The translations under genes and the position numbers were made by a program. The notes beneath the pieces are model-generated. The model had not been told where the DNA came from, made no database searches, and saw only the letters and a list, made by a program, of their open reading frames with translations. A DNA stretch of 64,000 bases from Eledone cirrhosa. Lineage: Eukaryota. The stretch covers positions 29,260 to 93,259 of the forward strand of contig CAXHJY010001421.1 in assembly GCA_964016885.1 (NCBI GenBank), given 5' to 3'. Positions 13,679 through 58,867 of this stretch are shown one piece after another. The number at the start of each line of letters is the position of its first letter. The stretch's first letter is position 1.

Positions 13679-13745
13679 TATATAGATATACATATATATG
13701 TAGGTGTATGTATATATATATATATAGTTATATATAACTATATAA

Positions 13746-13964
13746 ATTTCGTTTTTAAATTTGCTTTGCAAGATTTCTTATCTGAAAACGTGTGTTGAAA
13801 CCGATATTGTTATACTTTAGGAGGGTCATGCTGCCAATAAAAACACATGTGCCTATTGGTTGTGTGTTTTTATTGGCAGCATGACCCTCCCAAAGTATAA
13901 CAATATCGGTTTTAACACACGTTTTCAGATAAGAAATCTTGCAAAGCAAATTTAAAAACGAAAT
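13746..13964. repeat. Near-perfect inverted repeat (102-bp arms, 15-nt loop)
   Basis: 13746-13847 vs 13863-13964, two mismatches seen. Confidence 0.95.
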
Positions 13965-14021
13965 ATATATGGTCATATATATATGTCTAGGTGTGTGTGT
14001 GTAAGATAGTATATATATGTT

Positions 14022-16589: not shown

Positions 16590-17477
16590 CAGGAAATCAA
16601 CACAAAATTCCTGATTCACAATAGAGATAGGGATGCAGGCAAAACACCTAGATGTGACATCAAGTGCAGACTCTGCAGAACTAACATCGAAGATATCACC
16701 CATGTCATAAGCAGCAGTCCAAAGATGTCATCACGGTACTATCTACCTATGAGGCATGATATAGTGGCCAAAACACTGTACAATGCAATCCGTAGAAAAG
16801 ATAGCCCCGACAATAAACACATTAAAAGTTACAGCAATGTGGAAGACATATACATACATAATATGAAAGAGTACTGGTGGAATGTTCCAGTAAAAACCCC
16901 AATAAAGTGCAGGCATAACAGACCAGATATAATGATATGGGACAGGGAAAAGAAGGCATGCACAGTAGTGGAAATTAGCTGCCCAGCAGATGCCAATATA
17001 ATATCAAAGGTTAGCGAAAAGGAGAATATCTATGCAGAACTAATGATAAATCTACAGATACTCCACCCTGACTATACCTTCAGATTTATGCCTGTGATTA
17101 TTGGGCCACTGGGGTATGTTAGTAACTGCCTCAATACAAATCTTGAGAAGCTGGGCTTCACAGAACCAGAAAGAACACAACTAGTTAGGAAATTACAACT
17201 ACAATATCTTAAATACCTTAATGGAACAGTAAAATTATGTAAAACATTCCAAAAATTCTGCATCTAATAACTGCATATACACTTTTACAGATACAAAGCA
17301 TATGCACATGCACACATATAAATCAAAACATTCACATCCACATGTGCAATAACATCCATACCTGCACATTCATGCAAGCATGCAGACATATCTACCTAGT
17401 TGATGTTGTGTAAATTCCAATGAGAGAGTTTTGTATCTATTGGTAAAAATGTGTGAAACGATAAAACCAGAACAACA
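16590..17477 (+). mobile_element. R4/Dong-clade LINE 3' part: CCHC knuckle + restriction-like endonuclease, 3' UTR
   Basis: ORF to 17267: [30 protein letters not shown]; flanked by (CATA)n. Confidence 0.9.
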
Positions 17478-17535
17478 TACATACATACATACATACATAC
17501 ATACATACATACATACATACATACATACATACTTA

Positions 17536-18098
17536 CATGGTGGCTGCCAACTCGTTTTCGAGTACGGCCACTACTTTATATCCATGTAGGAGAACCCCTA
17601 CCGATACGCTGAACGAGTGTGACTTTTTAGTCCAGCCAGCGACTTGAAACTCTGGTACAAACACTACACTTGTGACAATTATTTACACATAGTGCTGGGC
17701 CCATGGTACCATGTGACGACAAGTGCAGAGAGATCTCCAGATATAAAGCAATGCCTGTGCCGTGAAGCTTTTATAGTGAGCAAAGGCACTGCACAAAGCC
17801 AGTCCCACTCTCTTAACCAATTTGATATTTACCAAAAAGAAGAACAAGTCAACATCATTGGATACCATCAGGGTTGCAGGTGTTATATCAGAGTTTTCCT
17901 TCTCCTAGAATTCTGCCTTGACAAAAGCTAAGGGGTCATCTCTCCCGGTGATTTTGGATGGCTCATGGTCAGGTCGTTGGCGACTAAACTGGCAACCTCA
18001 CCAAGGTTTCTTGGTGAGGAGGGTGACTTTGGACATCCTGCAGGACTAAAAACAAAACCTGTCAAAGGGCAAAGGAGCTCTTAAGAGTCAATGGCCAC
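17536..18098 (-). mobile_element. Non-autonomous RTE-derived element with (ATGT)n tail; 5' 135 bp inverted
   Basis: Reverse complement of 54229-54743; carries CTAGGAGAAGGAAAACTCTGA, a motif I recognise from RTE 5' UTRs. Confidence 0.6.
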
Positions 18099-18102
18099 AT
18101 AC

Positions 18103-18133
<31 letters not shown>

Positions 18134-18159
18134 CATACATACATACATACATACATACA

Positions 18160-18190
<31 letters not shown>

Positions 18191-18192
<2 letters not shown>

Positions 18193-18973
18193 TTGTATTG
18201 AGGCAGTTACTAACATACCCCAGTGGCCCAATAATCACAGGCATAAATCTGAAGGTATAGTCAGGGTGGAGTATCTGTAGATTTATCATTAGTTCTGCAT
18301 AGATATTCTCCTTTTCGCTAACCTTTGATATTATATTGGCATCTGCTGGGCAGCTAATTTCCACTACTGTGCATGCCTTTTTTTCCCTGTCCCATATTCG
18401 TAAAAAAGATAACCCCAATAATAAACACATTAAAAGCTACAACAATGTGGAAGACATCCATGTACATAATATGAAAGAGTACTGGTGGAATGTTCCAGTA
18501 ATAACCCCAATAAAATGCAAGCATAACAGACCAGATATTATGATATGGGACAGGGAGAAGAAAACATGCACAGTAGTGGAAATTAGCTGCCCAGCAGATG
18601 CCAATATAATATCAAAGATTAGTGAAAAGGAGAATATTTATGCAGAACTGATGAGAAATCTGCAGATACTCCACCCTGATTACACCTTCAGATGTATGCC
18701 TGTGATTGTTGGGGCACTGGGTTATGTTAGTAACTGCCTCAATACATATCTTGAGAAGCTAGGCTTCACAGGAACAGAAAGAACACAACTAGTTAGGAAA
18801 TTATAAGTACAATCCATTAATGGAACAGTAAAAATATGTAAAACATTCCAAAAATACATACATATCTACCTAGTTGATGTTGTGTAAATTCCAATGAGAG
18901 AGTCTTGTGTCTATGTAAGAAACCGACTCTCTCTCTATTGGTAAAACTTTGTGAAATTATAAAACCAGAAGAA
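18191..18973 (+). mobile_element. Second R4/Dong 3' fragment preceded by an inverted 207-bp fragment
   Basis: 18398-18806 encodes [21 protein letters not shown]; 18191-18397 is the reverse complement of 16935-17141. Confidence 0.9.
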
Positions 18974-24547: not shown

Positions 24548-24680
24548 ATATATATATATATAATAATGTAATATATACTTGGTGGTCACCGATCTGTCCA
24601 GCTCATTTGTCTACCAGCATATCATGAAAAAATTATACATCTCATATGTATTTTGTCTGAAGAGGATATGTTTTGGTATA

Positions 24681-25633
24681 TGGAGGCACATGGCTTAGTG
24701 GTTAAAGCATTGGCCTTGCAATCGAAAGGGTGATGTGTTGTTTCCTTGAGCAAGACACTTTATTTCACATTGCTCCAGTTTACTCAGCTGTAGAAATGAG
24801 ATGATAGGGACTGGGGTCCCTATCATTCCACTGCAAAGTGGATGTGTAGGTGCCATGTCAAAAAAGCACCCAGCACTCACTGTAAATGAGGTTGATGTTA
24901 GGAAGGGCATCCAGCTGTAGAAATCAAGCCAGAATCAGTTCCCGTCCCACCCTTGCAAGCAGGGAAAAAGCGGACGTAAAATGAAATGATGATGATGATG
25001 ATATGTTATACATAAAGCTTTGCATCTTCGAAATATAATAAAATAGAGATGATATAAAGTATATATTCTTCATTTATTACTATTATTATTATAATACTCC
25101 GGATATATACCGTTGAGTGCTTGCCATCTGTTACATATAAGAATCAGTTGATTACAAATCAACTAACTCTTTATTCATTGATTAATATATATATATATAT
25201 ATATGTGTATGTGTGTGGTGGTGTGTATGTTTATGTGTCTACATGCATCATCATCATCATTTTACGTCAGCTTTTTCCCTGCTTGCAAGGGTGGGACGGG
25301 AATTAATTCTGGCTTGATTTCTACAACTGGATGCCCTTCCTAACACCAACCTCATTTACAGTGAGTGCTGGGTGCTTTTGTTTCTGTGGCGCCTACACGA
25401 CCACTTTACAGTGTGGGCTGGGTGCTTTTTTGCCGTGTCACCTCCACGACCACTTTGCAGTGGAATGATAGGGACCCCAGTCCTATCATCTCTTTTCTAC
25501 AGCTGAGTAAACTGGAGCAATGTGAAATAAAATGTCTTGTTCAAGGAAACAACACATCACCCGGTCCGAGAATTGAACCCACAACCTTTCGATTGCAAGG
25601 CCAATGCTCTAATTACTAAGCCATGTGCCTCCA
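24681..25633. mobile_element. Two tail-to-tail SINE family B copies (24681-25002 plus, 25247-25633 minus)
   Basis: Both match 11544-11893. Confidence 0.9.
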
Positions 25634-25846
25634 TTATATATATATATTTAACTGGCAGTAACACTAATACAGCGTTTTAGCATAATAGAGGGGTATATGA
25701 AATCATATACAGACATATATTACACATTTATATACAATAAACATATGGGTAACCTTGCTATCAACGAAAGATATTTTTTCATAACGAACACATTATTTTT
25801 TTATATTTTCCTCTTTGAATATCTCACAGTTGCCAGTACATTTTAA

Positions 25847-27566: not shown

Positions 27567-27597
<31 letters not shown>

Positions 27598-27601
<4 letters not shown>

Positions 27602-27831
27602 AAAATCTATGACCCCGACGGCATAGCTCAAGCCATTTCGACGGCTATTTCTGGACTAATCAGAATTTTTATTTTTTTTTTTATTTTGATTTAGTCCAGA
27701 AATAGCCGTTGAAACGGCTTGAGCTCTGCCGTCGGGGTCATACATTTTCCTATTACCCACTCTACTACCCTAAGTATTGAGTATTCTGGTGCGTTATGGT
27801 CCATCTGGTTCCTTACCACAACTCCTTCGTT
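27598..27831 (+). mobile_element. Fold-back Penelope/retrozyme-like element (family also at 31418, 36811, 58566)
   Basis: Inverted arms with GAAACGGCTTGAGCTC.GCCGTC, then an ~80-bp unique tail, within (TA)n. Confidence 0.75.
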
Positions 27832-27842
27832 ATATATATATA

Positions 27843-28781
<939 letters not shown>

Positions 28782-28782
28782 T

Positions 28783-28860
<78 letters not shown>

Positions 28861-28919
28861 GTATATTTATATGTACATATGTGTATATATGTATGTATAT
28901 ACAAGTATATATATATATA

Positions 28920-30168
28920 CTTAGCTTTTGTCGACCTGGAGAAAGCCTTCGACAGAGTCCCCCGCTCCATTATCTGGTGGGCTCTTAGAAAACTAGGCGT
29001 TGACGAATGGCTTGTGAGGGCTATACAAGCCATGTATAAAGAAACAGTCAGCAAGGTTAGAATTAACAACGAATATAGTGAAGAGTTTAGCGTAAAAGTT
29101 GGCGTCCATCAGGGCTCTGTTCTCAGCCCCCTACTATTTATTATTGCCCTTCAGGCTATAACAGAGGAGTTCAAGACAGGCTGCCCATGGGAACTCCTAT
29201 ACGCAGACGACCTGACACTCATAGCGGAATCAATGGCCGAGCTAGAGAAGAAATTCCAAACATGGAAGCACGGCCTAGAGTCAAAAGGACTTAAAATTAA
29301 CCTGGCTAAGACCAAAGTTCTAGTTTGTAGGAAAGAAAACAAGGCGGCGGTCCCTTCTGGGAAATGGTCGTGCTCGGTATGTAGGAAAGGCGTAGGTAGA
29401 AACTCCATCTTATGTCCTAAATGCAAAGTATGGGTGCATAAAAGATGTAGTGGGATCACAGGTAAGCTAACTAAGAACATAGACTTTACATGTGGCCGGT
29501 GTTCTGGTGCAATAAGTAGCAGCAAGTGCCCACAAAATACTAGCTCTTTCAATTGCGCAGAGGGTTCTATAGAAATAGTGGACAGCTTCCGTTACCTGGG
29601 CGATAAAATCAGCAGTGGGGGAGGGTGCTCTGAAAGTACTGTAGCTAGAGTCAGAACTGGTTGGAAAAAGTTCAGAGAGCTTATACCACTATTAGCTGCT
29701 AAAGGGTTCTCCCTAAAAATGAAAGGCAGGTTGTACGATGCCTGCATACGAACAGCATTGTTGCATGGTAGTGAGACCTGGGCATTGTGTGCAGAGGATA
29801 TACGCAGACTAGAGAGGAACGAAGCTTGCATGCTCCGCTGGATGTGTAACAGTAATATACGTGAACGGCAAAGCATAAACGAACTAAGGAAAAAATTAGA
29901 GATAAGAGGGATCAGATGTTGTTTACTCGAGAGAAGGCTGCGTTGGTATGGACACGTGATGCGCATGAAAGTCGATAGCTGTATTACAAAGTGCAGGGCA
30001 ATAAAGATAGACGGTAGCCACGGAATAGGCAGACCTAGAAAAACATGGGATGAGCTGATACACTCCGACCTCACACACTTACACCTCTCCAAGACAATGT
30101 CACTGGACCGTGACCTTTGGCGGTACTCAGTAACAGAGAAGACCCGCCTTGCCAGTAGGCATCTCTAA
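28920..30168 (+). CDS. 5'-truncated RTE LINE ORF: RT C-terminal half (YADD) + PHD-type zinc finger + C-terminus
   Basis: Open frame with [31 protein letters not shown]4HC3 motif, [15 protein letters not shown]; the N-terminus in the track is microsatellite. Confidence 0.93.
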
Positions 30169-33284: not shown

Positions 33285-33399
33285 TCCATACAATGATCGT
33301 GTCTCGAGCTATCTGCCGGCAAAACAATTGTAACACACAATGAACTGAGTCCAGATGCATCACTGATTTTTTGTTTTATATTATATATATATATATATA

Positions 33400-34285
33400 C
33401 GAGGTGTATCAGAAAAGTTCCAGTACTGATGTCACAAAAGATTTATTTCAAACCCAAACTTCACACTAAGAGTTTTCTCCTTCAAAGTAATCCCCCTGGA
33501 GTATGTAACTGTAATCTTAGCTCTCTGTAGTGATCAAACTTTTTTCCTCATAATTTTATATACATGTCCTCTGTTTCAGGTCGTCAAGCAATGAGCACAG
33601 AGCAACGAACAAACTTGCAGTTTCTGGTACGGTTGGGGAAAACTTTGTCAGAAGCACTGGGATTGCTGCAGCAAGTGTATGGAGATGAGACGATGTCATG
33701 TTCATGTGTTTTTGAATGGTGCAAGATGACCCCAGGAGCGGAAGCCCTCAACAACCAGGACTGAGGTTAACGTTGAGCGCGTCAGGCAGATGGTGCGTAG
33801 CAATCTTCGGCTGACTGTTCGACTGATGGCAAATGAGCTGGGCATTAATCGGGACAGCGTCTGGAAGATTCTTACTGAAGATTTGGACATGCGGAAAGTC
33901 TGCGCGAAGATAGTGCCAAAACTGCTGAACGATGACCAGAAGGGTCAACACATGCAAGTGTGCTAAGTCATCCTCGAGCGTCTTGAAACCGAACCAGACT
34001 TGCTAGGGACAGTCATCACCGGTGATGAGTCATGGATCTTCGAGTATGACCCGGAGAGGACCCGTTTTGAAGACGTGGACGACATCAAAAAGGCCATGAC
34101 GATGGAACTGCAGAGGATCCTGAAAGAATCCTTCCAGGAGTGCATGCAAGCGTGGCAGAAAAGGATGGAAAGGTGCATTAGACTCCAGGGGGATTACTTT
34201 GAAGGAGAAAACTCTTAGTGTGAAGTTTGGGTTCGAAATAAATCTTTTGTGACATCAGTCCTGGAATATTTTCTGACACACCTCG
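33400..34285 (+). mobile_element. Defective mariner transposon with ~103-bp TIRs
   Basis: TA flanks; transposase pieces EQRTNLQFLVRLGK, VITGDESWIFEYDPE, CIRLQGDYFEG; catalytic middle deleted. Confidence 0.92.
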
Positions 34286-34300
34286 TATATATATATAAAA

Positions 34301-34489
34301 TAATTGTTTCTACTTTAGGCACAAGGCCAGCAATTACCCAGTGCATTACTGGTACTTTATTTTATCGACCCCGTAAGGATGAAAGGCAAAGTCAACCTCG
34401 GCGGGATTTGAACTCAGATCGTAAAGGGATGTAACTATACTGGAAAGCATGGCGTCCGACCCTCTACCGATACTGCCAATCCACCGCCC
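34301..34489 (-). mobile_element. SINE family A
   Basis: Near-identical to 24357-24547. Confidence 0.9.
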
Positions 34490-34500
34490 TATATATATAT

Positions 34501-34876
34501 AAAATAATAAGTGCAAATCAACATGTTAAAGTTGGCTTCATTTATTCACATTCGCTGCTATACATATTTCAGTGACAGCGATTATTGGTTATAACCTCAT
34601 CAGGTAGTAAGAATTTAGGCAGAAAAAACAGGAAAACATGATGTTGTAATGGGTTCTATCCTGTTAATTCATCTTATTGCCTGATGAGGTCATAACCAAT
34701 AATGGCTGTCAGTGAAATATGTATAGCAGCGAATGTGGATAAATGAAGCCAACTTTAACATGTTGACTTGCACTTATTATTTTACATTACTCCGGAGTAA
34801 ACAAACCAACCTGCGCACTTCGTTGAGTGCTCCAACCTGCATACTGAGGTGTCGGTAAACAACCAACATATACTCA
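34501..34876 (+). mobile_element. Fold-back element with a hammerhead core on both arms plus a tail
   Basis: Arms about 34501-34625 / 34653-34783; TCATCAG 34597, CTGATGA 34681, GAAA 34714; tail with CCGGAGTA and TTGAGTGCT. Confidence 0.75.
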
Positions 34877-35569
34877 ATATATATATATATAAGATATATG
34901 TGTGTGCATCCAGCCATAGAAACCAAGCTCAAATCAGTTCTGTGTGAGCGAATCATTATCATGATCATCATTATCATCATCATCATTCTCATCATCATCA
35001 TTATCAACATCATCATTTTGCATCCATTTCCTCTGATAACAAGGGTGTATATGTATATCTGTATATACATGGGACAAGGGAATGGGTGAAGGCTTCAAGA
35101 CCATCATCTCTGTTCATTCCCTTGTCATTTTAGTTTGGATTGCCTTGAGAACATAACCTTATTATGTAATGAAGCTGTCAGATAAGATCATAGCACTAGT
35201 TACGCGGAATCGCATTGCCACTGATGTCATTGAAATATGTATCACAACCTTATCAATAAAGGACTTTAACGTATGCAACTACTTCACATTTTGTTATTCT
35301 AAATATACTCTGTCATTCCTATGTGAAAAAATGTATGTATATAGACTCTGCTAAGAATATTGCAATCGCTTGTCAGATTATAGAGTTTGGTGCACTTTTA
35401 GACTATGACCAGCCACACAAACCTGTAACATATCCTGAACAAGCAATGCCTGTGCTTTGAAGGTTTTTTAAGTGGGGAAAGGCCTTGCACTCAACCAATC
35501 CCACTCTCTTAGCATCGAAAACACTACCCGAAAAGAAGCACTGGTCAACATCATCCTGACAAACAGAGC

Positions 35570-36684: not shown

Positions 36685-36810
36685 TCATCATCATCATCAT
36701 CATCATGATTCATCGTTTAACGTCCATCAAATATATATATAATATATATATATATGATGGACGTTAAACGATGATGATGATGATGATGATATATATATAT
36801 ATATATATAT

Positions 36811-36999
36811 AACGAAGGAAATGTGGTCAGGAACCAGGTGGACCATAACGCACCAAAGTACTCAATACTTAGGGTAGTAGAGTGGGTAACAGGAACAAGT
36901 AAGACCCCGACGGCTGAGCTCAAGCCGTTTCGACGGCTAATTCTGGACTGAATTAGCCGTCGAAACGGCTTGAGCTCAGCCGTCGGGGTCTTACTTGTT

Positions 37000-37002
<3 letters not shown>
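36811..37002 (-). mobile_element. Fold-back family member with perfect ~52-bp arms
   Basis: 36891-36942 vs 36949-37002; tail 36811-36890. Confidence 0.8.
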
Positions 37003-37047
<45 letters not shown>

Positions 37048-41959: not shown

Positions 41960-42145
41960 GAGTCTCGGGTTCAATCGGGGGTAACCACAGTAAGGTAATC
42001 AATACATTAGTAGAGTTTAAACATCAAATTTAATGTAGAAATGTCTTCTACAGGAGTAGCACTGTTTCATTTGAAAGATGTCATCAGGAAAGCCCTGATG
42101 ATTTCTTTCAAATGAAACAGTTCTAGTCCTGTAGAAGCCATTAAA
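41960..42145 (-). mobile_element. Fold-back element with hammerhead cores on both arms plus a tail
   Basis: Arms 42045-42137 centred on TCATCAGgaaagccCTGATGA; GAAACAG on both strands. Confidence 0.7.
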
Positions 42146-42232
42146 TTTTATATATATATGCGTGTGTGTGTAGGTATGTATATTTACCTATCCTTACCTT
42201 GATTGGGTGAATATATGACTTCATATGAATGC

Positions 42233-43313: not shown

Positions 43314-43574
43314 GATATATATATATGTGCATGTAAGTATATATATAAATATATATGTATATATTATATATAGAGAGGGGGGGGGGAGAAATTATCATTG
43401 TAGAACATCTGATGTATATATTTTCAATTTTTCATATATAAGTTAATCAAGATTCCATATTTCCAGAAAGCAACAGCTTCCTTTAATCACCTCTTTTGGT
43501 CTCAACTCTGCATACCTTGATCTGCCAAGGAATAATGTGGACCTATAACTAGGAATAGTTGTATCATTAGTCCT

Positions 43575-44700
43575 TCATTCTCAGTCGAGGAGAGGGAGTC
43601 ACGGTTCTGGGACAGCATTCCTCACCATATGAGATGTCATCTGGTGTACCACAGGGATCTTGGCCCCCTTTTGTTTGTGGCATATATTAATGACATAGAT
43701 GCCAACTTAAAGAATGCCACAGTACTAAAGTGCGCAGATGACATCAAGCTGTACCTTGAGATAAAAAGGACAGATCCTGAACACTATAGATCTTGCTTGC
43801 AGTCTTATCTGGACACAATGCAACAATGGATCTCAGACTGGCAATTCAAGCTAGCTGTGGACAAGTGCACCAACATACATTTTGGGAGTAAAAACCCAGC
43901 GCCCACATACTCCCTCCACAACACTGATATCAAGAAGTCTTCTTGTGAATGTGACCTGGGCATTACGGTCAGCAGCGATTTGCGTTGGACGAAGCACGTC
44001 TCTAAAATTGTCAAGAGGGCCGAGGGTGTCTTAGCATCACTCAGCAAGACCTTTGTCAGCCGCTCTCCAGATATCTATTTAAGGCTGTATACAGCTATGG
44101 TGCGGCCACACTTAGAATTTGCATCACCAGTCTGGAACCCCTATCTTGCTCAGAACATTGACCGCCTGGAAACTGTTCAGAGACGTGCAACCAAGCGAAT
44201 ACCCTCCATCAGGCATCTACCATACTCTGAGCGCCTTGCTTCCCTGGGCATGGATTCATTGAAGCTTCAACGTCTGGCAATGGACTTGGTAAACACCCAC
44301 AAAATTGTTAACCATCTTGCCAACAACAACCCTGAGTACCTTTTTGATTTCCATGTGTCTAACATAGGTGGACATGCCCACAAAATCAGAAAACAGCACA
44401 GTTCCCATGACTTTCGGAAACATTTTTTCACACTCAGAGTTGCTGAAGCATGGAACAAACTACCTGCATCAGTTGTTGGCTGTCGAGACACTGCATCCTT
44501 TAAAACCTCCATGCTTCCTGAGATTCGCCAACACTACACCTAATGTTCCCCCTCCATACACATACACACATGTATATCATGACTCATACACTATTCACTT
44601 CCCTGACGTTTGTATATTATTCTATGTACTATACGTACACCTTTGACAAGTTGTAGTGCACCTGAGCACTTTACACAATAATTTCATTATTATTATTATA
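43575..44700 (+). mobile_element. CR1-clade LINE 3' part (RT C-terminus open to 44543), 3' UTR, (ATT)n tail
   Basis: LGPLLFVAYINDI, CADDIKL, LYTAMVRPHLEFASPVWNP, FFTLRVAEAWNKLP. Confidence 0.92.
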
Positions 44701-47368: not shown

Positions 47369-47515
47369 ATATATTGTTATACTTGGGGAGGGTCATATTG
47401 TTATAATATTGCCAGAAATATATATATATATGTGTGTGTGTGTATATATATATATATGTGTGTGTGTATATATATATGTTTATATATATATGTTTATATA
47501 TATATGTATATATAT

Positions 47516-47911
47516 ATGTATGAAAAAGGTAAACAGAAATAACAACACAATCGGTACAATATATGGAAGGAATATATTAGGTTAACGCTTGAAATAGCAG
47601 GAAGAGGGTCTTAACGTTTCGGATGCTAGTCCTATTCTTTCTTCTGATGAAGGACGAGTGTCTAAAACGTTAAGACCCTCTTACTGCTATTTCAAGCGTT
47701 AACCTAATATATACCTTCCATATATTGTACCGATTGTGTTGTTATTTCTATTTACCTTTTACATACATATATATATATCAACGCTTACGTGGATCTCTCA
47801 AAATTCGTTGGATTTTCTAATTTGATTTTCACCTTGAAACTGGATACCAACCCGGAGTACACCTGAACTTCCACCAGGAGATCTTTTGTATCATTGAAGT
47901 TTTCTTTGCTT

Positions 47912-47915
<4 letters not shown>
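47516..47915 (+). mobile_element. Fold-back element (~115-bp arms) with a minimal hammerhead plus a tail
   Basis: tctt-CTGATGA(47644)-aggac/gagt/gtct-aAAA-cg-TT-aaga; the other arm keeps CCGAAACGTT; tail has CCGGAGTAC. Confidence 0.78.
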
Positions 47916-47992
<77 letters not shown>

Positions 47993-48208
47993 GTTAAAAA
48001 TGTACATCTACATATGCATACTGAAATACTAGTGTGTATATGAATACACACACGTATACATATGCAGATGTAACAAGTCTTTCACTGGTTGCTTTACTGT
48101 GAGCAACCCAGCTATTCTGTATGTAAACACACAGACAAACCGGTTTTTAGAGTCATACTGGTTTTCGAGGAAACACCTTCCCTCTATTCTCCAGAAAGCC
48201 AGACAAGG

Positions 48209-48253
48209 AATATTGAACTAGTTTCGTTGTTGTTACAACTCATCAGCAATATT
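48209..48253 (-). ncRNA. Intact type I hammerhead ribozyme
   Basis: Exact reverse complement of 48720-48764. Confidence 0.88.
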
Positions 48254-48719
48254 TACCTATCTACCGGCCTTTCTGGAGAATTGTAAAAGCACATATCGTT
48301 ATATGCTTTTTCTATGAAAATTAGTAGTGGGCAGACTAATTTGCATAGAGTGTGAGTACGCACCGGTTTGTCTGTGTGTTTACATACAGAATAGCTGGGT
48401 TGCTCACAGTAAAGCAACCAGTGAAAGACTTGTTGCATCTGCATATGTATACGTGTGTGTATTCATATACACACTAGTATTTCAGTATGCATATGTAGAT
48501 GTACATTTTTAACTTAATTGTTTAAGCGTCAGTCATACAAAAGTGAGTTACAAACGAAACGAAATTTAATTTCGTTTCGTTATTTGTTTTTATCGTCTCC
48601 GCTGAACCGGTGCGTACTCACACTCTATGCAAATTAGTCTGCCCACTACTAATTTTCATAGAAAAAGCATATAACGATATGTGCTTTTACAATTCTCCAG
48701 AAAGGCCGGTAGATAGGTA

Positions 48720-48764
48720 AATATTGCTGATGAGTTGTAACAACAACGAAACTAGTTCAATATT
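48720..48764 (+). ncRNA. Intact type I hammerhead ribozyme
   Basis: aatattg-CTGATGA-gttgt/aaca/acaac-GAAA-ctag-TT-caatatt: perfect stems I and II, palindromic stem III, GUU site. Confidence 0.88.
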
Positions 48765-49125
48765 CCTTGTCTGGCTTTCTGGAGAATAGAGGGAAGGTGT
48801 TTCCTCGAAAACCAGTATGACTCTAAAAACCGGTTTGTCTGTGTGTTTACATACAGAATAGCTGGGTTGCTCACAGTAAAGCAACCAGTGAAAGACTTGT
48901 TACATCTGCATATGTATACGTGTGTGTATTCATATACACACTAGTATTTCAGTATGCATATGTAGATGTACATTTTTAACTTAATTGTTTAAGCGTCAGT
49001 CATACAAAAGTGAGTTACAAACGAAACGAAATTTAATTTCGTTTCGTTATTTGTTTTTATATATATATATATACAAGCAGGGAAAAGCGGACGTAAAATG
49101 ATGATGATGATGATATCATCATTTT

Positions 49126-49510
49126 ATCATCATCATCATTTTATGTCCGCTTTTCCCTGCTTGCAAGGGTGGGACGGGAACTGATTCTGGCTTGATTTCT
49201 ACAGCTGGATGCCCTTCCTAACACCAACCTCATTTACAGTGAGTGCTGGGTGCTTTTCTGCCATGGCGCCTACACGTCCACTTTACAGTGTGGGCTGCGT
49301 GCTTTTTTGCCATGGCACCTCCACAACCACTTTGTAGTGGAATGATAGGGAGCCCAGTCCTATCATCTCATTTCTACAGCTGAGTAAACTGGAGCAATGT
49401 GAAATAAAGTGTCTTGCTCAAGGAAACAACACATCACCCGGTCTGAGAATTGAACTCACAATCTTTCGATTGCAAGGCCAATGCTCTAACCACTAAGCCA
49501 TGTGCCTCCA
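49126..49510 (-). mobile_element. SINE family B
   Basis: Full-length match to 11544 and 25247 copies. Confidence 0.9.
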
Positions 49511-49690
49511 TGATATATATACATATATATATATATGTATAGGTAGTAGAAGTGCAAATGAATTGGGTCCGCAGGCAGTATACCAAGATGAGCAGTTGAA
49601 GATCATGGGGAGCAGAGTATCAGCCTAAAATAACAAATCAGATGTTTAACAATTCAACTACACTTGGACGTGCATCTACATGTGAGAACA

Positions 49691-51449: not shown

Positions 51450-54181
51450 GTCTTCTGCTTTTATTATTTTATAAACAAGACTCCTTCATTGGAATTTAGA
51501 CAGCATCATCTGTAAAACATGTATACACATATTTATTAGAATGTTGTTGAAGTGTGTATATATTTTGGGGGGACACTCTGTATATATATATATGTGTGTG
51601 TGTGGATCTGTATGTTTTGAGTTATATGTTTTGCATATGTTTATGTGTCTATATATGTATATATGCAGTTATTACATGCTGAATTTCACAAATGTTTAAC
51701 AGTTCTATTAATTAATTGTACTTGCAGCTCCCTAACTAGCCACACCCTTTCTGGTTCTGTGAAATCCAGCTTCTTAAGATTTGTACTAAGGGAGCTAATA
51801 ACATATCCCAGAGCCTCATGTACCACAGGTATAAATCTAAAGGTATGGTCAGAGTGGAGTATCTGCAGATTCTCCATTAGTTCAGCATAAATGTTCTCTT
51901 TTTCACAAATCTTTAGCATTATATTGACATCTGCTGAGCAGCTGATTTTCACTATTGTGCATGCCTTCTCTTCTCTGTCTCATTATCACTATGACTGATC
52001 TATCATGTTTGGATTTTGTGTGGGTTTGACTGGAATATTCCACCAATACTCTTTCATATTATGTATGCATATTTCCTCCACATCACTGTAATTTTTTACA
52101 CGCCTATTCTCAGGACTATCCTTTCTACAGATTGCATTGTATAGTGTTTTGGCCACTATCAAGTAGATAGTACCGTGATGATATATTTGAACAGCTGCTT
52201 ATGACATGGGTGACATCTTCAATGTTTATTCTCAGAGTCAGCATCTGTTGTCACATCCAGGTGTTTACCTGCATCCCTACCCCTTTTGTGCATTAGGTAT
52301 TTTGTTGTTATTTCCTGTTCTCGGACTCAAAAAGCATATCCTTCAAAGTAAGAAACAATATAGCAGTTACTGATCCAAGATAGACTACTTTGCTTATTTA
52401 AATTACTCTCACTTTGAAGCTTTCTGGCAACATGGCCATACATGTTCTTATTTTTTGAAAAGCATGCAAATTTCCATCCATGGGTTTGTTGCAGTATTAT
52501 TGTTCAATTTCCCTGGATGTGAGTTTTTGGTTGTCATGCAGTGAGTATTTCTCAAGGAGCTCCTTTACAGCTCTCATGATGTTATCTCCTTCACATAGAC
52601 AGACTTGTTCTATACATGGGCTTCTATGCTTAGTGGTGTGTAGATGTTGGAGGGGTATGATGTTATTTGGACTGATGTTAAGCCTCCGTCTCCCTGTTGA
52701 CATTTCAGGTTGACACGGTTTATGTCACTGTTGATGTGGAAATTTCCTGTGCTGGTTAGAACTTTGGGGGTTTTAACATCAATAGATCAGGCTTCATCTA
52801 CCGCCCAGTCAAGTAATCCAAATGTGGGTGACAGCACAGGTACAGCAAACACATTGTGGACCACTGACATATTGTGTGGAGAGAGTTCTGAAGATCATAT
52901 TTTTCTTATTTGGGTGTGATATTCCATGGTTACTCATTCCTTGTTACAAATTCCATCACAGAATATTTTTTCATCTATCCCTAGGTATCAGTAGCAGTCC
53001 TAGAGATAGAGATGTTGCTAGATTGGCTTGTAGATTTTTCTCACTTTACAATCATATAGTAACATTTATCCTGGCCAAACTCCATTCTTATATGTACATA
53101 TATATGTATGTTCTTCTGGTTTTATAATTTTATAAATTTTTACCAATAGAGAGAGAGAGCCAGTTTCTAACATATATACAAGACTCTCTCATTGGAATTT
53201 AAACAATATCAACTAGGTAGATATGTATGCATGCCTGCATGCATGTGTGTGCAGATATGAATGTTATTGTATGTGTGGAAGTGTATGTTTTGAGTTATAT
53301 GTGTACATGTGCATATGGTTTGTATCTGTACAAGTGTATATGCAGTTATTCGATGCAGAATTTTTGGAATGTTTTACCCATTTTTACTGTTCCATTAATG
53401 GATTGTACTTGTGATTACCTAACTAGTCGTGTTCTTTCTGTTTCTGTGAAGCCCGGCTTCTCAAGATTTGTATTGAGGCAGTTACTAACATATCCCAGTG
53501 CCCCAATAATCACAGGTGTAAATCTGAAGGTATAGTCGGGATGGAGTATCTGCATACATATGTATGTATGTGTATATGTATGTGTATATGAATGCATGAA
53601 TATATGTATGTATGCATGTATGTATGTATGTGTGCTTGTATATATGAATATATGTATGTATGTATGAATATATGTATGTATGAATATATGTATGTATGCA
53701 TGTATGTATGTGTGCTTGTATATATGAATATATGTTCTTCTGGTTTTAAAATTTCACAAATTTTTTCCCAATAGAGAGAGAGTCGGTTTCTAACATAGAC
53801 ACAAGACTCTCTCATTGGAATTTACACAACATCAACTAGGTAGATTATGCATGCATCTACACATGTAGATATGGATGTTATTGTATGCGTGGATGTGTAT
53901 GTTTTGAGTTGTATGTGTGCATGTGTATATGCTTTGTATCTGTACATGTGTATATACAGTTATTAGATGCAAAATTTTTGGAATGTTTTACATATTTTTA
54001 CTGTATTGGATTGTACTTGTAATTTCCTAACTAGTTGTGTTCTTTCTGTTCCTGTGAAGCCCAGCTTCTCAAGATTTGTATTGAGGCAGTTACTAACATA
54101 CCCCAGTGCCCCAATATTCATAGGCATAAATCTGAAGGTGTAATCAGAGTGGAGTGTCTGCAGATTTCTCATCAGTTCTGC

Positions 54182-58463: not shown

Positions 58464-58565
58464 TTAATCTGAAATAATAATTGTTTCTACTTTTGGCACA
58501 AGGCCAGCAATTATCTCAGTACATTACTGGTACTTTATCTGAACTAATAATAATATATATATATA

Positions 58566-58773
58566 TAGGAACGAGTAGGACCCCGACGGCTGAGCTCAAG
58601 CCGTTTCAACAGCTAATTCTGGACTAAAATGATTTTAATCCAGAATTAGCTGTTGAAACGGCTTGAGCTCAGCCGTCGGGGTCCTACTCATTCCTATTAC
58701 TCACTCTACTACTCTAAGTATTGAGTACTTTGGTGCGTTATGGTCCACCTGGTTCCTTACCACATTTCCTTCG

Positions 58774-58776
<3 letters not shown>
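58566..58776 (+). mobile_element. Fold-back family member (~60-bp arms)
   Basis: Same arm and tail as 27598 and 36811. Confidence 0.8.

Positions 58777-58867
<91 letters not shown>

Follow-up and report, generated by a model that had tools for sequence, protein, structure and literature searches.

In a 64-kb window, by which we mean the whole stretch of 64,000 nt that was analyzed, copies of a 467-nt unit with a hammerhead motif stand in tandem and in inversion between two (TA)n tracts. The arrangement raises the question of what was inserted there, by what machinery and from which form of RNA. A sequence-only reading had seen in it a young retrozyme mobilized in trans, written as one and a half rounds of cDNA from a self-cleaving and possibly circular RNA. 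We share the view that the element is young, non-coding and multi-copy, and that it was mobilized in trans, most likely by a Penelope-like element (PLE). The sequence indicates a real, young insertion of an abundant 467-nt non-coding mobile element bearing a hammerhead motif, and the best reading, which we hold to be probable, is a recent insertion of a non-autonomous retrozyme-type element by the RT/GIY-YIG protein of a PLE encoded elsewhere.

The direct repeat consists of two 232-nt copies (segment B, 48362–48593 and 48829–49060) with a period of 467 nt and a single mismatch at 48435, as had been described. The inverted copy is equally clear: 47987–48368 matches the reverse complement of 48605–48986 in 382/382 nt and lacks the first 11 nt of segment A, which lies between the direct copies. 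The inversion junction had been placed on the palindrome ACCGGT, found at 48139, 48362, 48606 and 48829; the palindrome does sit at the junction, while the true overlap is 7 nt (48362–48368), common to unit positions 48605–48611 and 48829–48835. When the unit is compared with its own reverse complement, 84 of 218,089 position pairs share 7 nt, in a test chosen after the junction had been seen. The element is flanked on both sides by (TA)n, as the sequence-only reading had noted, with (TA)37 as the left portion of the target microsatellite (47914–47987) and a right portion at 49058–49073; one to three letters are common to the element end and the tract, three of them on the right.

Taking 48986, where the inverted copy ends, as a 3′ end, we infer a different parse of the same letters. 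It begins with an inverted, 5′-truncated and tail-less copy on the minus strand (47987–48368), whose 3′ end (unit position 48986) adjoins (TA)n. This is followed on the plus strand by a 5′-truncated upstream copy of 158 nt (48362–48519), which contains the sole mismatch and to which we give the label pseudo-LTR from the Fig. 2 legend of PMC8557442, then by the full unit (48520–48986; 467 nt, predicted to fold into a series of hairpins) and finally by a 3′ tail of 71–74 nt (48987–49060; 74 nt in this parse), equal to the start of the unit and with a 13-bp hairpin inside it (49020–49048). The GC content of the unit is 36%, below 50%. The claim that the locus has no real ORF held: the longest stop-free frame is 70 aa, none of the eight frames scanned, among 14 on the list, reached the Pfam cut-off, and no ORF with RT and GIY-YIG lies between the repeats. 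Within the window, no further copy of the unit was found, the remaining matches being TA-rich low-complexity sequence.

Each strand of the locus carries one hammerhead core only, at 48727 on the plus and at 48246 on the minus strand. The plus-strand motif (48720–48764; core 48727–48733 and 48748–48757) has a palindromic helix III and a predicted cut after 48757 at the triplet GUU, which is common in the alignment of PMC4209133; the motif in the inverted copy (48209–48253, minus strand) was recognized from both the sequence and Rfam. The search with hammerhead models proposed earlier bore the motif out in part: HH9 matched with 38.6 bits and an E value of 6.3e-8, yet below the gathering score of 52. 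No Rfam match in the window attains its gathering score, and those to microRNA and twister families were rejected as sub-threshold hairpin noise.

The predicted helices and the core on each strand agree with the type I hammerhead that had been described, with its 7-bp stem I, 5-bp stem II and palindromic stem III. In the predicted ensemble of the circular monomer, stem I (7 bp) and stem II (4–5 bp) form with pairing probabilities of 0.66–0.99, and helix I is predicted to run on via an internal loop into a long stem (48692–48787, plus strand; z −5.0, with 0/200 shuffles equally stable). Helix III, of 2 bp and a 2-nt palindromic loop, is absent from the monomer ensemble and is predicted to pair between two copies. 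The sequence-only reading had taken the motif for the minimal type, and here we came to another view. In the definitions given in PMC4209133, the canonical metazoan type I hammerhead has a helix I of 6–7 bp with an internal-loop extension, a helix II of 4–5 bp, no additional base after A9 and a 2-bp palindromic helix III, and the minimal form of PLEs has an extra base after A9, a long helix II, a short helix I and no helix III loop. The locus shows none of these minimal-form traits, and by those definitions its hammerhead is the canonical metazoan type I, as typical of retrozymes, and not the minimal PLE form.

The unit as a whole appears strongly self-paired. Read as 48594–49060, the 467-nt cycle has a predicted circular fold of −161.4 kcal/mol in comparison with −96.3 ± 6.1 kcal/mol for 60 shuffles (z −10.7), and the minus-strand fold is weaker at −131.2 kcal/mol. 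In the predicted fold of a read-through RNA of the whole locus, the two ribozymes are paired with each other in a 382-bp duplex. As there is one ribozyme per strand, the locus is unable to release unit-length RNA alone, and with both ribozymes buried in the read-through duplex of the model, this copy is probably an evolutionary dead end. Exact ribozyme patterns had no match in two scans of metagenome contigs and one scan of viral contigs.

The PLE signature given in PMC8557442 comprises a partial tandem, an adjacent inverted 5′-truncated copy, a one-sided tail and (TA)n targets, and the locus has all four: the partial tandem pseudo-LTR, the adjacent inverted 5′-truncated copy, the single-ended tail and the (TA)n target. 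In the reaction described in PMC11167929, a PLE protein introduces nicks into both strands of AT-rich DNA and extends them. Synthesis begins at two internal positions, located downstream of the ribozyme and delimiting the tail, and the main template in vitro is uncleaved RNA; the polarity of the locus matches that order, with the ribozyme upstream of the two 3′ ends. The weight of the target argument alone is reduced by the density of (TA)n, with 285 tracts in 64 kb, and the tail of 71–74 nt is about twice the 30–40 nt given for published PLE tails. The sequence-only reading had taken permutation together with inversion as a sign of a circle. This does not follow, since both belong to the standard PLE layout and copying of an uncleaved tandem transcript leads to the same arrangement.

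Neighboring loci show a similar layout. Among nine hand-picked inverted loci in the window, the 467-nt locus included, five consist of a tail-less arm that adjoins (TA)n and, on the opposite side, a tail of 71–89 nt, and the other four have no clear tail; long tails seem to be usual in the host genome, judging by these sequences. Three of the five tailed loci are one other family, with differing inversion points. Its members at 27569–27844, 36789–37044 (minus strand) and 58553–58820 consist of (TA)n, an inverted tail-less arm, a direct arm, a 77- to 79-nt tail and (TA)n, and have no clear hammerhead core; from their sequences, they are likely to be the truncated termini of PLEs, whose clade may be one without ribozymes. 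A further inverted repeat between (TA)n tracts (34490–34891) has hammerhead-like cores at 34681 (plus) and 34603 (minus) and an 89-nt tail. Just left of the 467-nt locus, a palindrome with 127-nt arms lies in (TA)n (47507–47777); a decayed minimal-type hammerhead stands at its center, and its sequence is unrelated to the 467-nt unit. Other inverted repeats or hammerhead-like cores adjoin (TA)n at 41990–42150, 13729–13981, 2389 (minus) and 12340 (minus). Judged from sequence, footprints of the PLE type are dense in the window.

Repeats of other kinds are also present. A SINE-like repeat on the minus strand (49074–49512) directly follows the right (TA)n, its 3′ end lying head to head with its own inverted copy as a palindrome, and related copies lie at 24677–25000 and 25242–25638. 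Two LINE-like 3′ fragments, about 90% alike, occupy 16788–18855 along with an inverted piece of 207 nt that matches the first of them at 99.5% identity, and pieces related to them occur near 51700–52000 and 53400–53550. A LINE ORF with RT and a PHD finger (28858–30168) and a second LINE RT fragment (43536–44543) were seen as well, and a nearby LINE protein has named relatives of about 50% in Hydractinia and Branchiostoma. These relatives indicate a metazoan host, possibly an octopus-like cephalopod if one guesses by the repeat content. The transposon remnant at 33380–34304, which we take to be mariner-like, has terminal inverted repeats of 124 nt.

To place the unit in its family, we turned to public sequencing runs, 20 of the 24 listed containing the stretch or part of it and none of these being on record as RNA. 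Four runs of one organism label (two samples, one study) contain 76–82% of the sequence words, 76% being reached in a run of 88 Mb. Sixteen other organism labels contain 16–44% of the words, and two sibling runs of one study contain none. We compared four runs in detail, where contigs prove presence only. The expected multiplicity of the unit was borne out in run X1 with 988 contigs, of which 470 are at 99% or more identity and 301, 177 and 40 follow at lower levels, 217 being below 95%. The summed depth in X1 is 2.4–6.5e5 over most of the unit and 16–33 for rare contigs, which suggests thousands to about 10^4 copies, this depth being uncalibrated and not itself a copy number. The contigs show many genomic copies of a diverse and very abundant family.

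Run X4 bridges the B-to-A junction at full depth and X5 spans it, and the unit therefore closes head-to-tail on itself in the family, tandem arrays and partial tandems looking alike in such short contigs. An array with two same-strand ribozymes was not seen. Five X1 contigs have in common a 3′ end that meets (TA)n at 48991; the contig comparison left out 49018–49110 as repeat, so that the second 3′ end (49060) is not visible in other copies. Among the 17 of 56 loose ends listed, we saw neither a high-depth exit from the unit into other sequence or an ORF nor an autonomous PLE partner with common ends. None of the four runs compared lists the inversion junction among its joints, where contigs show presence only. 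Two runs under other labels (X5 and X6) contain a near-identical unit at low depth, and in X6 there is also a diverged form whose triplet is GUC. Such sequences would fit close kin, trace DNA and transfer alike, and we give them no weight as evidence.

Among the 34 variable places listed for the family, none falls in the hammerhead core, and a change at 48735 disrupts a helix II pair in about 36% of the X1 depth. One hairpin (48865–48886, plus strand) carries two to three double changes, its stem being swapped for a compensated version in most family members, with a depth dip and loose ends there in all four public runs compared; templated DNA repair could be an alternative cause. In a wobble test of strand-specific structure, 12 of 17 paired-site transitions keep the pair in comparison with 53% expected (p 0.12, not significant), and variants are not rarer in stems (20/292 paired versus 5/132 unpaired positions). 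The internal copies at the locus carry the same minority alleles, for example at 48900, 48939, 48956 and 48964, and the family as a whole diverges by several per cent. As far as sequence goes, these common alleles show one template lineage and make no choice between a circle and a tandem transcript.

Under the preferred reading, a master locus would yield an RNA longer than one unit, either as an uncleaved tandem transcript or as a ligated circle, and the PLE protein would nick both strands of a (TA)n tract. The first nick would prime cDNA at the far tail end (49060) and copy 699 nt through the uncut ribozyme site, and the second would prime at the near end (48986) and copy 382 nt. The two cDNA ends would anneal via the 7-nt overlap and, after fill-in, leave the inverted copy, the partial tandem and the one-sided tail. 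The ribozyme may be active only in two-copy transcripts, through the dimer helix III, where it would trim or circularize the master RNAs. Judged from the copies, a cleaved linear monomer cannot be the template; a circular one is possible and not required.

A narrower version, closest to the sequence-only reading, has a covalently closed 467-nt RNA circle as the template, with 1.5 rounds of copying and a further copy made on the other strand. We regard it as a serious contender but one with the balance somewhat against it. The cDNA passes through the cut site and is longer than one unit, the internal copies carry the same minority alleles in a family differing by several per cent, the unit is predicted to fold well as a circle, and PMC7229834 demonstrates circular RNAs of retrozymes from coral, mussel and axolotl. 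Identical repeats are also present, however, in the transcript of any partial-tandem copy inserted earlier, which would give the same product; uncleaved RNA is the main PLE template in vitro (PMC11167929), no array with two same-strand ribozymes was seen, and eight of nine Xenopus dimers were without cleavage in the experiments described in 10.64898/2026.07.22.740005. The unit could instead be the mere terminal repeat region of a long autonomous Penelope, and the locus a truncated copy of it. PLE ends bear type I hammerheads, truncated copies with opposite-strand ribozymes 100–700 bp apart are known (PMC4209133) and retrozymes are often homologous to pLTRs (10.64898/2026.07.22.740005), but the sequence past the tail re-enters the unit both at this locus of the window and, with full depth, in the contigs, no coding remnant was found in the frames scanned against Pfam, and the ribozyme is canonical rather than minimal, which makes this origin improbable.

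We considered it slightly less probable still that a ribozyme-bearing satellite or SINE-like repeat was moved by a LINE through twin priming or rearranged as DNA in fragile (TA)n. LINE remnants exist in the window, and 5′ inversion with microhomology is known for L1. In the L1 pattern the inverted parts are non-overlapping, whereas here one stretch of 382 nt is present in the inverted as well as in the direct part, and the ends of the two are separated by 74 nt; a poly(A) or simple tail is absent, and the same one-sided tail is found in other families nearby. That the tandem and the inversion are an assembly artifact of a high-copy repeat seems very unlikely. Perfect inverted repeats beside long (TA)n are difficult to assemble, and the lack of the inversion joint from the four runs compared would fit such an error, but the window contains no N, all copies at the locus carry a single haplotype specific to it, public contigs contain both the B-to-A junction and the end that meets (TA)n, and older, diverged loci nearby have the same layout. 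Readings as a split-direct-repeat element (DIRS/Ngaro) or a MITE were dropped on the unequal ends and the lack of terminal inverted repeats with a target duplication, the definitions of these classes being applied to the anatomy of the locus.

The probable PLE-mediated insertion of a retrozyme-type element touches on three known systems. Like metazoan non-LTR retrozymes, the family has a unit that is short, non-coding, low in GC and highly self-paired. Its type I hammerhead is likewise canonical and the palindromic helix III weak, and the head-to-tail junction, the high copy number and a proposed dependence on PLEs are further points in common. Its 467 nt exceed the 150–450 nt given by Cervera and de la Pena 2020 (PMC7229834) and lie within the 51–972 nt of Li, Clavereau and Pollet 2026 (10.64898/2026.07.22.740005). 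The former named PLEs as candidates for retrozyme mobilization; the latter backed the link by distribution and pLTR phylogeny and asked for the mechanism. The active retrozyme as defined in the 2026 paper differs from this locus of 1.5 units; with its one ribozyme per strand, we class the locus as a PLE-type insertion, non-autonomous and from a retrozyme-like family, and not as an active retrozyme. The inverted copy and the one-sided tail are both absent from the passages that describe retrozymes in these two papers. With EN+ PLEs (Craig et al. 2021, PMC8557442; Frangieh et al. 2024, PMC11167929; Cervera and de la Pena 2014, PMC4209133), the locus has in common the pseudo-LTR partial tandem, the adjacent inverted 5′-truncated copy, the one-end tail, the (TA)n target and the ribozyme upstream of two 3′ ends. 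It differs from them in a 467-nt unit without an RT or GIY-YIG ORF, a canonical instead of a minimal ribozyme and a tail of 71–74 nt instead of 30–40 nt. The non-autonomous Chlamys PLEs, such as MRC1 (PMC8557442), are likewise non-coding, with pLTRs and head-to-tail insertions, but come from a green alga and from a clade described there as without canonical hammerheads; their 3′ end is common with an autonomous partner, whereas none was found for the 467-nt family among the 17 of 56 loose ends listed.

The literature searched, with the repeat libraries Repbase and Dfam outside its scope, yielded no paper on cephalopod retrozymes or on the 467-nt family. Its class, its layout and a link of such elements to PLEs have all been published before. 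A bolder version, which we regard as doubtful, is a family of some 10^4 copies whose RNA, 467 nt long, is circular and cleaves itself, in animals of a group with none described in the literature searched, and is written into DNA by a PLE from the circle with two-strand priming at two fixed sites. If this were true, every insertion would directly document how a retrozyme integrates, a step hitherto argued from co-occurrence and pLTR phylogeny, and the near-identical copies found under other labels could even stem from a recent spread among species. The family bears on the question of how animal retrozymes enter DNA: young, abundant and keeping the PLE footprint, it would allow junctions to be counted over thousands of events, the PLE partner protein to be searched for via common ends, and the circle and the tandem transcript to be tested against each other as the template.
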